DNA of 64,000 nucleotides from positions 2,790,001 to 2,854,000 of the forward strand of contig CM022678.1 of assembly GCA_012295275.1 (NCBI GenBank). Direction: 5' to 3'. Below are positions 3,226 through 51,980 of this stretch, one piece after another. The stretch is from Chrysomallon squamiferum (Eukaryota; Animalia; Mollusca). Position 1 is the stretch's first letter, and the number at the start of each line of letters is the position of its first letter. The notes beneath the pieces are model-generated. The model was not told the DNA's origin, ran no database searches, and saw only the letters and a program-made list of their open reading frames with translations. A program made the translations under genes and the position numbers.

Positions 3226-5314
3226 ACAGGAAATTCAGGAGCAGAAACTCGAAGAGGCACTACATCAGAAAAGACAACCAACAGAGAATGTTCCCATCAG
3301 CAACATTATCATCAACAGCCTGAAGGAAAACATCATCATCATCGTCAACAACAACAGCACCATCGACAGAATATGGCACAAAGTGGTTAAGTATCTCAAA
3401 ATTCACAGAGAAAATTTGTTAAACTTTTTTTCCCCAAAAGTGTGTCCTCATTCTGTTATCAATACCTGAATTTAATAATTTTTGAGATGAAGATACAAGA
3501 ATGAATATTTTGCGATATCTCAAACATGAGTGGTTCAAGAAATGGACACCAGTTGATCAGGTCACTCTCTTTGGTAAGCTAGGAGACATTTTGATCAGGA
3601 GCATGAACAAAAATCAAGGAAATATTTTGTTGGTATTTAATGAATATTGAATTGTACTTGTTGTGATATGAATGAATAAATTTCCAAAAATTGTTTACAC
3701 TTTCAAATCAGTATTTCTGTATTTGGGAACATCACATAAACAGTATACTTACCCCTCACTAGTGCAGTTGTGACATCATAGCCTGTACAATGGAATGTAG
3801 ACTGATTGTTTCTGATGCTTGAACAAATTTACTGTAAATTACTCCACATTGCTGTAAATGCAGAGAAATGGTAGAATTGAAATGTTTTTCATTTTGTTTA
3901 TTTAACTGAGATATATATATATGTATATATTATTATTATTATTATTATTGTTATTATTTCCTTATTTACATAGTATTTTATTTATTTTGTTATTAACATT
4001 TTTTTTTACTTATTTATTTATTTAATTTTTTTTTTTTAATATATTTTATTGTTTCTTCAGTTGTTTGATTGTTTGATTGTTTATTTATTTATTAATGTAA
4101 AAAAAACACCTGGGATTCTTTTCCTTTTTTTTCCTCATTTATTATTTGTTCTTTATTTATTTTTTAGTATTTCTTTAAGCATAATGTTATTGAAAAAAAC
4201 CCCATCTATATTATTAATAATTCTGTGATTTTAATTATCTGTTTGAATCCTGTCTGTGTTTTAGAAAGTCCAGCAATGTTCACTATGGAAGAATACACAA
4301 CTAACAATGGAGTAGACATCATCTGCTACATTGGTGACATCACACAAGCTGCTGCTGATGGAATAGTGACTGGACAAGGCTGGGATTTGACAAAACCTGG
4401 TTTGGTGACAGAGGCACTTTGTGGTTCTGCACAGATTCAACCTGCAGACTTCAGTAAAATTATCATTGGCCTACATAAAAGTAAACATCTAGAGACAGGA
4501 GATATTTGCTGCCTTTCACCTCGAGAGCATCACATCAGACTGAAATTCAAAACAGTAATTATGGCTGGTGTCTTACACTTTAAGGCTGCATGGACTAAAA
4601 GTCAATGGAAACATGAAATGGAAAGTCTGTATATAAAAATCTTAAATACGGCAAATGAAGAAAGATTAGAGTCAGTTGCTCTGCCTCTCCTAGGTTGTGG
4701 TAAGTGTAATCAGCTTCACAGCTATATTCAAATGATTGTTACATAATTCTTAACAATTAGCTTGTAACATTCTATTGTGTTTGGTGACAGTTTATTATGT
4801 GTTTGTTGACTGGCAACAATTAACTAGCTGTAGTGATAGTGAAATATCTGTATCATGATAATTTAGTATCTCTATGGTGATTGGTAATAGTCAAATATGA
4901 ACTGAAGAAATATTTGAAAAGAAAATTGTAACATACATATCTACATTAAAATACAAATTAAATATTTAAAGTTATTTAAAATACCACTTAGATATGAAAA
5001 TGAAATAAGATGTGACACACTATGAAAAGGTATATTATTTATTTATTTATTTATTTATTTATTTATTTGGACTCACAGGATCTGCTGAAGTTCCTTTGTC
5101 TGTTGCTGCTGAAGCTCTTGTAGCAGCTTTGTTGAAATACAGAACAAAATGTCTCTCTAAGGTGTTCGTGGTCTCAACTGGTGGAAACACCCATGGAGAG
5201 ATAATCAAGCAACTGGAGAATTTTTTTACAGCAGAAAGTGGACCAAGAAACAAAACTGAATCAACCAGAGTACAAGAAGAATTAGCGAGTAAGGGTGTAA
5301 CCGAAGATTCTTGA
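3226..5314 (+). CDS. G1: single-macro-domain protein ending in only the terminal helix of a Deltex DTC domain. Exons 3226-3385, 4265-4699, 5079-5314; candidate ATGs at 3373 or 4276.
   Basis: Macro motifs YIGDITQ..ADGIVT and SVALPLLGCG|SAEVP with a phase-1 GT-AG intron at the Gly. The C-terminus [16 protein letters not shown] matches the last exon of G5 ([13 protein letters not shown]). The upstream His/Gln-rich exon splices in frame (less certain). It is an inverted paralog of the G3 5' half. Confidence 0.7.
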
Positions 5315-49400: not shown

Positions 49401-51980
49401 AATGAAGAACCAGGAAAACCAAATAAAATAAAATCTAAAAATGAAAATGACAAAGACTTAAATGCTGATGTAGAAACAAAAAACAAGACAAAAATAATGA
49501 AGAACCAGGAAAACAAAATAAAATAAAATCTAAAATGAAAAAAAAGACTTAAATGCTGATGTAAAACAAAACAAAGACACAGAAAATAATGAAGAACCAG
49601 GAAAACAAAATAAAATAAAATCTAAAAATGAAAATAACAAAGACTTAAATGCTGATGTAGAAACAAAACAAGACACAGAAAATAATGAAGAACCAGGAAA
49701 ACAAAATGAAGCAGAATCTGAAAATGAAAATGACAAAGATTCAAATCCTAGTGCAAAATCAAAACAAGGCACAGAAAATGAGAACAAGTCAAGAAGTCGA
49801 AGAGAATCTGACAGAGGAATAAATTCAGGCACAGACAATATAGACACTGACAGAGAGAGTGGCATAGAGTCAGGCACAGGGACTGAACAGAGACAAACAT
49901 GTGAAGATGATCGTGATGATGGAACTGATAACGATAAGAAAACTCAACACAAATCTTTGGAGCTAAAGGTCAATGAAGCAGATGAGATACCCACCAAGAG
50001 AGATAAATCAGATTTGGAAGAAGAATTGAAGACCAGTGACTCTAGATTGCAAAATGGGCATGCTGATCAAGAGGAAAGTACAAAAAGTAATGAAGACGCT
50101 AAAAGAAAGTTGAAGGATGAACATGATATACCAAAACTTAAAACGAAGAAAAGAAAAAATATAATAAAGAAGATATCTTCTAGTCAAAATGACAAGATGG
50201 TAAATAACACAGAAACAACAGGTAAGAAACCAGAAGAAACACAAGAAATTTGTGTTATTTGTATGGAGTCAGTAAGAAAACCCAAAACCTTAGAAAAATG
50301 TCATCACACTTTCTGTAAGAAATGCATCAATGATTGTTTTCGTCAGTTCAAACCAGTGTGTCCTACGTGCAACATGGTGTATGGTGTTGTTCGAGGAACT
50401 CAACCTGAGGGCACAATGGACATAACTCACAACAGAGCTTGCCATTTACCTGGATATGAAAAATGTGGAACTATCATCATAGACTACAGGTTTAAAGATG
50501 GCTGGCAGTCTGTAAGTGTGATTTACTGACTTATAAAGTATCACTCTGTGTTTTGTATGTTTATATAATCATGTGTGGGGTTTTTTATGTACATGGTCAG
50601 CAATACTTTGGTGTGTGAACTGTCTGACCATTTTTGTTGGAGTGATGATTGGCTAATTTAGATAAATGTGTGTTTGAAGAGTTGTGTTTCTTTTATGATA
50701 TATCATTCTGTGTTTTAATTGTGATATATTTAGATATATGTGTTTGAAAAGGGATATGCATGTTTTATAATGTAGCATTCTCTGTTTTAACCTTTTTAAA
50801 ATATTTTTGTGTTTGAAAAGTTTTAAGTATATTAAAAAAATAATAATAATAGAATATAAATTTAAAAAAGAAGTGAAACTATGATTAGATAATTAAATTA
50901 ATTTTCCTATTTATTTTGTCATGACATCAAAATAAATCCTGATCATACTTAAAAATTGTGAAAGTGAAATGCTTGTTTTCAAATAATTTTATTTTAATAA
51001 AAATGACATATTTAATTTCTTTTAATATTGGAGAATACTTAAAAATTTTAAAATCTGTTCTCAGGAAGAACATCCCAATCCTGGAGAACGATATCATGGA
51101 ACGCGACGAACAGCCTACCTGCCTGATAACAGCGAGGGACAGGAGATCTGCAGATTGTTAGAAGTTGCATTTCACAGACGACTTATTTTCACTATAGGCA
51201 GATCAACAACAACAGGACAGGAAAATGTTGTAACTTGGAATGACGTTCACCACAAAACTAGAATCGATGGTGGACCAACCAGGTAGAATAGTTCAATATG
51301 TTTTAATTTTTATCAATCAAATATTAATGTTAAACTTTAGAATTTACAATTTAAATATTTCTGTAATATACTCCATAAAGCTATTAATAATGGCAAAATA
51401 ACTTCACAATATAGTATTGAAAATGATTATTTTTTTATATAATATTCTCCATAAAACTGATTACAAGTGCAAAGTAACTTCACAATTTAGTATTTAAAAT
51501 ATTACATTTTTATAGAGTACTTCCATAAAATTAACTGTATATCAGATCTAAATATTCAAACATCTTTCTAATTCTGCACCGATTGCAAACTTTTTATAGT
51601 TTACAAAAAAACCACTGTAAATAAAACTTCTGTAAACTGAACATCAAATATAATTAGATTTAAAATTATTATTAAAACTCGGTTCCCATTCTCTTGTGTT
51701 ATAGAATTAAAAACATTTGAAACAAAATTTCAGCACCAAAGCTTTGAAATATAAAATGTGTGTGAAATAAATTTCATGCAGGAGGTATTTCAAGAATTTA
51801 GATGTTTGCATTTGTGTTCATTCTATCTTTGTATTTTGATTTGTGTTCATTATAAAGATGTTTAATTTTGTTTTTCTGTTTAGATTTGGATATCCTGATC
51901 CACAATATTTATCCAGAGTACGCGAGGAGCTGGCAAGCAAAGGTGTTACAACAGAAGACCTGACAAGTCGTTCAAAATAA
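46457..51980 (+). CDS. G9: macro-long repeat linker-RING-DTC E3 ligase (Deltex/DTX3L-like), with frameshifts confined to A-runs in the repeat array. Exons 46457-46898, 47259-50511, 51065-51282, 51884-51980.
   Basis: Intact macro, RING ([19 protein letters not shown]) and DTC exons. Single-base indels at ~48320-48420, ~48670-48750 and ~49480-49570 break the frame, either as assembly error or real slippage. Confidence 0.75.
47670..49780 (+). repeat. 96-bp (32-aa) coding tandem repeat, about 22 units, lysine-rich
   Basis: Unit [32 protein letters not shown]; 96-nt period (47964 to 48060). Confidence 0.92.

Follow-up and report, generated by a model that had tools for sequence, protein, structure and literature searches.

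A tandem cluster of macrodomain-bearing Deltex ligase genes of probable DTX3/DTX3L type, likely under IRF control, in the gastropod Chrysomallon squamiferum

The window analysed here (64,000 nucleotides of Chrysomallon squamiferum, contig CM022678.1, positions 2,790,001 to 2,854,000) contains a cluster that we interpret, with somewhat better than even confidence, as tandem gastropod macro-ligases of the DTX3/DTX3L type, two of them intact, likely switched by IRF and with a non-catalytic macrodomain that would keep ADP-ribosylated targets in place for the RING-DTC module. In the proposed mechanism, infection would lead IRF transcription factors to switch on the macro-Deltex genes. A PARP14-like writer would act in trans, the non-catalytic macrodomain would hold the ADP-ribosylated targets, and the RING-DTC, as a putative E3, would link ubiquitin either to ADP-ribose or to the ends of single-stranded nucleic acids.

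Eleven copies of macro 'exon a' were located (4267, 25026, 26511, 36675, 44935 and 46457 on the forward strand; 9199, 10836, 18901, 20149 and 35290 on the reverse strand), as well as an orphan 'exon b' at 43318 on the reverse strand. Pfam Macro matched all 11 macro ORFs (E 3e-12 to 1.5e-3; 24 ORFs scanned), which agrees with the 11 macro domains, in about nine loci, counted in a sequence-only reading of this DNA. The same 24 ORFs gave no Pfam match to WWE, to RRM or KH, or to the ART (PARP) domain. Pfam and sequence comparison together yielded five RINGs and four complete DTC domains. The loci and their parts were as follows.

4276..5314, forward: G1, one macro, fused in frame with the final helix of the DTC
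7361..11633, reverse: G2, inverted copy of G4 with a linker frameshift, truncated just after the RING
16233..20140, reverse: G3, two macros, an acidic repeat with frameshifts and two unrelated exons (coiled-coil tail)
24228..30181, forward: G4, intact macro x2-RING-DTC gene, 924 aa (stop-free splice, Pfam, tree)
24228-24248, 24897-25416, 25999-26931, 27335-28344, 29332-29549 and 30109-30181, forward: exons of G4
33090..35272, reverse: G5, intact macro-RING-DTC gene, 504 aa (stop-free splice, tree)
35272-34858, 34572-33761, 33663-33446 and 33159-33090, reverse: the four coding exons of G5
36675..41020, forward: G6, macro, 96-bp repeat linker, RING and DTC, with in-frame TGA at 38107 and 38935
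43082..43311, reverse: G7, leftover of a G5 copy that has lost macro exon a and the 3' part
44935..46236, forward: G8, copy of G6 that has the macro only and a stop at 46234; the first coding exon of G9 follows directly
46457..51975, forward: G9, recent copy of G6 with RING and DTC intact
48302, 48594, 48692 and 49461, forward: frameshifted 96-bp repeat units of G9

Intact ligases occupied two of the nine loci (G4 and G5), or three if the A-run indels of G9 are errors; seven of nine were broken in the present assembly. G1, G2, G3, G7 and G8 lacked a complete RING-DTC and are fragments. The cluster thus consists of three old paralogues and recent broken copies, a make-up that fits the birth-and-death evolution suggested earlier. 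In terms of working genes, the amplification claimed with it is small (two or three).

G4 and G5 were both free of stops after splicing, as had been claimed. The splice model of G4 has six exons with GT-AG at every intron, including a predicted start exon of seven codons (24228-24248), and its protein starts about 55 residues before the macro. Six loop-1 residues are missing from the first macro of G4, and a 6-residue deletion in macro-2 of its copy G2 takes out the Asp. The first donor of G5 (GTTCGA) is weak; its protein is collinear with Gigantopelta P0001 (RefSeq) over the whole length, with 50% identity. In a RING-DTC tree built from 50 chosen rows of 145 extracted, without a DTX1/2/4 outgroup, G5 grouped with its orthologue P0001 and G4 paired with Gigantopelta P0034, in each case with support of 100/99.

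The macro-RING-DTC layout expected of G6 and G9 was found, and their frames were not open in the present assembly (two TGA codons in G6, four frameshifts in G9). G6 also has Arg in place of a RING His (about 39574), losing one zinc ligand, and is likely a pseudogene or null allele. Among the 21 listed repeat units of G9, four were frameshifted, with A-run indels in the 96-bp repeat, and these frameshifts are possibly sequencing errors. No promoter of G9's own was seen; G8 and G9 may share one transcription unit. The DTC tail of G1 is so divergent from the four window DTC tails (only 56–60% DNA identity) that it points to a fourth, lost paralogue. G3 has no RING-DTC, and its foreign tail gave no Pfam match and weak Atlas matches (recognition 1961 against the 2300 mark).

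Some blocks are 96–98% identical between copies and the indels of G9 all fall in A-runs of a tandem repeat, which would suit a cluster that is mostly an assembly artefact, that is, a few genes with mis-joined alleles and uncorrected long-read errors. We regard this as very improbable. The RING-DTCs of G4, G5 and G6/9 are saturated in dS between them, and for two of them a different genus has orthologues; the recent copies are 0.03–0.18 apart in dS, inverted, and carry private deletions. Artefacts could account for the G9 frameshifts and perhaps for copy number, but not for the architecture.

Pfam placed RING followed by DTC at the C-terminus of G4, G5, G6 and G9. All eight RING zinc ligands were present in G4, G5, G9 and G2, G6 being the exception (Arg for His). 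In four of four DTC domains the His of [IV]HHKT and the second Glu of EEL aligned with DTX2 H582/E608 and DTX3L H707/E733, so that the retention of the IHHKT His and the last-helix Glu was upheld; the catalytic roles of the Deltex His and Glu are taken from the literature (PMC11460948 among the sources). P0001 matched PDB 6Y22 and 3PG6 (E 1e-51), and its alignment to 6Y22 and 6Y5N had gaps at the DTX1/2/4 RING insertions and at the AR motif. The window sequences have the short RING and no AR motif, and their DTCs carry Phe at the position of DTX3L Y719 and DTX2 H594. A short RING without AR motif has been linked to ubiquitylation of ssDNA, by DTX3 and DTX3L only (PMC11460948). Judged by these RING and AR features, the window genes appear to be Deltex genes of the DTX3/DTX3L type. 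The deep branches of the RING-DTC tree reached 43/75 without a DTX1/2/4 outgroup, and one-to-one orthology with vertebrate DTX3L is not fixed by it. Haliotis formed independent paralogue sets in the same tree.

Structure models bore out the macro fold of the N-terminal domains. The model of the first macro exon of G4 (pLDDT 92.7) gave TM 0.72–0.77 to macroH2A and PARP14, and that of the P0001 macro (pLDDT 91) gave TM 0.81 to PARP14 MD1. Pocket residues were compared, by literature criteria for pocket and hydrolase residues (PMC10221186), between 26 gastropod macros (11 from the window and 15 others) and 17 MD1-type relatives. The adenine Asp was present in 25 of 26 gastropod macros (10 of 11 in the window) versus 7 of 17 relatives; Gly or Ser at the second loop-1 glycine position and the loop-2 GxG were found in 26/26 each (11/11 in the window). 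At the third loop-1 glycine, 25 of 26 had another residue, in many cases a bulky one, and none of the 11 window macros kept the glycine. The catalytic Asn (1/26) and the loop-2 aromatic (0/26) stood against 16/17 each in MD1-type relatives, and the MD1 set of hydrolase residues (Asn and Gly of loop 1, aromatic of loop 2) was found in 0 of the 11 window macros. Hydrolase activity was therefore rejected on residues. The gastropod macros are probably non-hydrolytic readers, because the adenine Asp and the phosphate-loop glycines are kept and the hydrolase residues are absent.

A change of Gly to Glu at the third loop-1 glycine abolishes binding in Af1521; our literature search found no paper giving macro Gly-to-Glu mutants. 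PARP14 MD2 has Pro at this position, yet binds ADP-ribose, and binding by the diverged window macros is plausible. In coronavirus Mac2 and Mac3, the ligand is a nucleic acid or a partner protein rather than ADP-ribose. The window macros could likewise belong to induced Deltex ligases whose macro binds such a ligand, ADP-ribose or ssRNA ends being left to the DTC alone, a reading to which we give about one chance in four. It would explain the diverged loop 1, with the third Gly lost in 25/26 and the six-residue deletion in macro 1 of G4, and the long branches of these domains in the macro tree; RRM and KH, the RNA binders of DTX3L, are absent, and another domain may have taken over their role. 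Inactive macros that bind nucleic acids have been noted (PMC10221186). The adenine Asp (25/26 against 7/17 in MD1-type macros) and the invariant phosphate-loop glycines argue for ADP-ribose reading instead.

The macro tree was a quick one, with 18 of 74 domains left out as near-duplicates or weak matches and with PARP9 and PARP14 not included. The gastropod macros had long branches in it. Both G4 macros fell in one gastropod group (SH-aLRT 92), and a branch with support of 96 lay between this group and the relatives' macros of MD1 and MD2 type. The G4 tandem was thus rejected as an MD1+MD2 pair, its macros being duplicates within one group. Purifying selection was detected on the macros of G6, G8 and G9 (dN/dS 0.36–0.41, p<0.01). 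Several recent pairs were near 1, among them G3m1/G1m (0.97) and G6/G9 RING-DTC (0.91), neither of which differed from neutral. Pairwise counting in 16 comparisons, 13 of which gave a ratio, found none above 1, the sequences being short and the power low.

A scan with the standard IRF consensus, begun after two sites had been noticed by eye, gave the following elements.

11720..11731, reverse: perfect, G2 (copy of the G4 site)
22835..22846, reverse: one mismatch, upstream of G3
24130..24141, forward: perfect, G4, 108 bases before the first-exon donor
35837..35848, forward: perfect, G5, 44 bases before the non-coding first-exon donor
36256..36267, reverse: perfect, G6, 109 bases before the likely non-coding first-exon donor
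44115..44126, forward: perfect, G7 (copy of the G5 site)
44531..44542, reverse: perfect, G8 (copy of the G6 site)

Six perfect elements compare with 0.24 expected, and six were reached in none of 100 shuffles. Every one of the three old paralogues has a perfect element just before its first exon, and the shuffle frequency for these independent promoters was 0.0005–0.0011 each; G5 and G6 are arranged head to head. The RPL19/PFK section of the window had no element. In oysters, ISRE reporters are activated by IRFs that are themselves induced by poly(I:C) (PMC5557890), and in Aplysia a DTX3L-like transcript is a hub of an ISG-like module (PMC8195618). IRF induction of the window genes, linked to virus or infection, is likely from the promoter sequences, and the elements before the first exons suggest an interferon-like immune role, adding new support to the immune role proposed earlier.

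The window genes could also be everyday Deltex genes without an immune function (acting in DNA damage, Notch traffic or general proteostasis) in a duplication-prone region, their extra copies being neutral debris. In favour of this account, most recent copies are broken, several recent pairs have dN/dS near 1 and positive selection was not seen; the perfect IRF element at each of the three old promoters, the independent Haliotis paralogue sets and the lack of WWE in the 24 ORFs speak against it, and we consider it improbable, at roughly one chance in eight.

A more far-reaching version of the IRF-switched reader-ligase reading, which we put forward tentatively, is that gastropods have an expanding, IRF-controlled set of minimal single-chain ADP-ribose-to-ubiquitin effectors, all of which would have lost the eraser macro and the RNA-binding domains while retaining a diverged reader, and in which the variable loop 1 would give each paralogue its own specificity for a type of ADP-ribosylated protein or viral RNA end. 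If true, an animal that has no interferon would possess an antiviral ubiquitin-ADP-ribose system independent of PARP9, which would also offer the simplest model of how a macrodomain feeds substrate to a DTC. In vertebrates, where the complex has three proteins, it is difficult to study how macro reading is coupled to ubiquitylation by Deltex; as a natural single-chain version of 504 residues, G5 could provide a direct test. The IRF elements make these genes, which lack annotation, candidates for antiviral effectors of molluscs, among them farmed abalone with paralogue sets of their own.

Other macro-RING-DTC proteins come from snails and bivalves, from a coral and from amphioxus. The architecture is already represented in RefSeq in many invertebrates and is not in itself new; our literature search found no paper on mollusc macro-Deltex genes. 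The join of macro to RING-DTC in annotated relatives bears out the claim of reader and ligase on one polypeptide, as far as a reader-like domain goes. Two relatives, P0035 (527 aa on 2086 bases) and P0088 (405 aa on 1351 bases), are read as spliced transcripts, since their sequences barely exceed the ORFs. PARP9 is absent outside vertebrates (PMC10221186), and the accessible part of a preprint by Picard et al. (bioRxiv 10.64898/2026.04.23.720386) states that DTX3L lost its macrodomain when PARP9 arose, macro-bearing DTX3L being the earlier state. Together with the macro tree, in which the G4 macros are within-group duplicates, this led us to reject the PARP9/DTX3L fusion that had been proposed. 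On that part of the preprint, having everything on one chain is the ancestral state in animals, predating vertebrate PARP9, and the gastropod family is, by its domain content, evidently a stripped-down form that has dropped RRM/KH and the hydrolase macro.

The closest known proteins are two 'uncharacterized' Gigantopelta RefSeq entries, LOC121378571 and LOC121376883, the orthologues of G5 and G4; the orthologue of G4 has a single macro where G4 has a tandem. The non-vertebrate DTX3L orthologues of Picard et al. likewise have macro, RING and DTC on one chain; in the accessible part of that preprint they are covered by one sentence and a figure without mention of molluscs, and mostly have RRM, whereas the window family has neither RRM/KH nor a hydrolase-type macro. 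The long macro-Deltex proteins of molluscs, coral and amphioxus (P0145-P0157, P0053, P0132) share the order of macro(s) before RING-DTC, and the last macro of the bivalve long forms is degenerate in a similar way to those of the window family. Most of these long relatives also have a macro with hydrolase residues, and some have PARP14-type RRMs, whereas the window family has the degenerate type only, and its macros group apart from their MD1-type and MD2-type macros. DTX1/2/4 and RNF146 also carry an ADP-ribose reader together with a RING in a single protein, but the reader is WWE (for poly-ADP-ribose) rather than macro, and DTX1/2/4 have the RING insertions and AR motif that the window family lacks. 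With vertebrate DTX3L-PARP9 the window family has in common the RING-DTC type, the catalytic residues, the coupling of macro to ligase and, as its IRF elements suggest, interferon-type regulation. Unlike that complex, it is a single chain with no KH dimerisation domains, no ART and no MD1 hydrolase; the N-terminal RRM and KH of vertebrate DTX3L are missing, and G5 and G6 start at the macro.

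Between 4.2 and 47.4 kb, translated searches of the AT-rich window located 11 copies of the macro "exon a" and a single orphan "exon b". Among the 24 ORFs scanned, Pfam placed Macro on 11/11 macro ORFs, RING on five, and DTC on four; the 11 macro domains counted in the sequence-only reading were thus recovered. All macros are interrupted at the same position by a phase-1 intron in loop 2, and two intron positions are common to all four complete DTCs. The top protein match came from the vent snail Gigantopelta aegis, with 70% identity over the RING region of locus G5. Further features of the cluster and its flank were as follows:

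24228–24248, + strand: predicted 7-codon start exon of locus G4 (MSCCNFW), in frame also in G2
37953–39053: 96-bp coding tandem repeat (11.5 copies), charged linker between macro and RING
47670–49779: 96-bp coding tandem repeat (21.9 copies), charged linker between macro and RING
52576–55247, − strand: RPL19 (ribosomal protein L19) gene, adjoining the cluster (Pfam, exons)
58641–63777, + strand: phosphofructokinase (PFK) exons, head to head with RPL19 (exons)

A 59-bp tandem repeat (15 copies, 60743–61660) lies within a PFK intron. Positions 1–2516 and 13854–16381 are a 97.8% direct duplicate containing the end of a coiled-coil exon. At 13358–13924 (+) lies an older duplicate (74%) of the first exon and promoter of G4, with no gene behind it, a degraded IRF element, and a lost ATG.

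Clearly intact loci number two of the nine (G1–G9), perhaps three, since defects were found in the other copies and the G9 indels are possibly errors; the large expansion proposed earlier is not borne out. G4 (two macros, RING, DTC) and G5 (macro, RING, DTC) are predicted to splice into intact ORFs, as had been read. G4 encodes 924 residues in six exons with GT-AG sites, given the start exon at 24228; its Cys-rich N-terminus may, speculatively, be a lipidation site. G5 encodes 504 residues, has a weak first donor, and is collinear with its Gigantopelta orthologue P0001 (50% identity across the full length). G6 and G9 share the expected layout, with the repeat linker before the RING, but not open frames: G6 has two in-frame TGA codons within this linker, and in G9 frameshifts occur in four of the 21 units listed, always in A-runs, so that its indels could be uncorrected read errors. 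The G6 RING has Arg where His is expected. In G1, the macro is joined straight to the last DTC helix, and this tail is only 56–60% identical to the four DTC tails of the window; therefore, a fourth paralogue was formerly present or is located elsewhere. G2, a copy of G4 in inverted orientation, has a frameshift and is truncated past the RING; G7 has lost its macro exon, and G8 has a stop past the macro. G3 has two macros followed by unrelated exons; two coiled-coil exons of the type found in the direct duplicate splice in frame after an acidic repeat. These exons gave no Pfam match and weak Atlas hits, and are possibly transposon-derived.

The macro fold was confirmed by predicted structures of P0001 (pLDDT 91, TM 0.81 to PARP14 MD1) and the first macro exon of G4 (pLDDT 92.7, TM 0.72–0.77 to macroH2A and PARP14). 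The hydrolase markers loop-1 Asn, third loop-1 Gly, and loop-2 aromatic residue (criteria as given in PMC10221186) were each found in 0/11 window macros, vs. 16, 17, and 16 of 17 MD1-type domains of relatives. Positions for binding are retained: in the 11 window and 15 other gastropod macros, the adenine Asp was present in 25/26, Gly or Ser at the second loop-1 position in 26/26, and the loop-2 GxG in 26/26. The third loop-1 position is often bulky in these macros, a Gly-to-Glu change there blocks Af1521, and G4 macro 1 is without six loop residues; all three points count against binding. They bear on the main rival explanation, that the macro has changed to another ligand, which we consider rather unlikely; PARP14 MD2, a proven binder with a reader role (PMC13224862), also has no third loop-1 Gly. 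A quick tree was built from 56 of the 74 domains, with PARP9 and PARP14 themselves absent; in it, window and short gastropod macros formed one group including both G4 macros (SH-aLRT 92), and the MD1-type and MD2-type macros of longer relatives were set apart (96). In long bivalve and Patella forms, a hydrolase-type macro comes first and a degenerate macro second; we infer that the gastropod short form retained only the latter.

At the ligase end, structures of DTX2 and DTX3L could be aligned to P0001 with E 1e-51. The catalytic His and Glu, previously said to be retained, are present in 4/4 window DTCs; this pair is reported to activate the ADP-ribose 3′ hydroxyl (PMC7615817). The position of DTX3L Y719 is Phe. 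A short RING and the lack of an AR motif are features shared with DTX3 and DTX3L, described as the only two that ubiquitylate single-stranded DNA (PMC11460948). The window RING-DTCs are putative ligases.

A tree of RING-DTC sequences was built on 50 chosen rows. In it, G4 was sister to Gigantopelta P0034 and G5 to P0001 (both 100/99), and G6/G9 were recent twins. All of these, ten Haliotis proteins, Patella, the protein P0032, and one further protein formed one group (93/95, slightly below the tool's star), inside which Haliotis had its own paralogue sets. dS was saturated among G4, G5, and G6 and was 0.03–0.18 for recent copies. The G6/G8/G9 macros were under purifying selection (dN/dS 0.36–0.41, p<0.01); several recent copy pairs were not distinguishable from neutral. 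The pattern of old paralogues and recent copies fits the birth-and-death evolution suggested earlier, but positive selection was not detected (0/13 dN/dS ratios >1).

The standard IRF element consensus was used as the search pattern. Its core is AANNGAAA (PMC7819612). The search, made after two sites were noticed by eye, gave six perfect matches vs. 0.24 expected (six were reached in 0/100 shuffles), which represent three independent sites, each duplicated once. Each site precedes a strong splice donor by 44–109 bases, upstream of G4/G2, G5/G7, or G6/G8; local shuffles yielded such a site in 0.05–0.11% of cases per promoter. The RPL19/PFK part of the window had no perfect match. A looser pattern was set aside, its matches being inflated by coding repeats. 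Oyster IRFs are reported to be poly(I:C)-induced and to activate ISRE reporters (PMC5557890), and an Aplysia DTX3L-like transcript ranks with the leading members of an ISG-like module (PMC8195618).

In the mechanism we propose, an IRF would switch the macro-Deltex genes on during infection. A PARP14-like enzyme, as known from molluscs (PMC10221186), would put ADP-ribose on proteins or RNA, and the macro would hold the marked target without erasing the mark. Across the long low-complexity linker, the RING-DTC would then move ubiquitin from E2 to ADP-ribose or a free nucleic-acid end. We find this mechanism, taken whole, moderately probable.

The architecture, of which the sequence-only reading could not say whether it was catalogued in other invertebrates, is neither new nor confined to this snail. 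Pfam Macro occurred together with DTC in 22/120 listed proteins, from Gigantopelta, four Haliotis species, Patella, Mizuhopecten, Ruditapes, Saccostrea, the coral Paramuricea, Branchiostoma, and other records, and in 12/14 long proteins. With our own profile, macros were found in 39/158 fetched proteins, none named as vertebrate. The long relatives P0145–P0156 (molluscan and other, 1670–3381 aa) carry 2–4 macros before RING-DTC, one with hydrolase residues, i.e., eraser and ligase on one chain; a scaffold length common to P0154, P0155, and P0145 suggests another cluster. The Branchiostoma hybrid P0157 (LRR-ZU5-macro-RING-DTC) is possibly a receptor-type Deltex or a gene-model fusion. Literature searches found no study on mollusc macro-Deltex genes; the available parts of a 2026 Deltex review (PMC13658767) and of PMC12583694 contained, respectively, no mention of macrodomains and nothing relevant. 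Macro-bearing non-vertebrate DTX3L is already in print (Picard et al., bioRxiv 10.64898/2026.04.23.720386), where the macrodomain is described as lost from DTX3L with the rise of PARP9. We reject the PARP9/DTX3L fusion of the sequence-only reading: the single chain is the older state, because it is widespread in invertebrates, the preprint places the loss of the macrodomain later, and PARP9 is reported from jawed vertebrates only (PMC10221186). The window offers a minimal single-chain model with a distinct non-catalytic macro class, and its IRF elements are direct promoter evidence for interferon-like control; the cluster itself is real, a variation on a theme already known but little studied.
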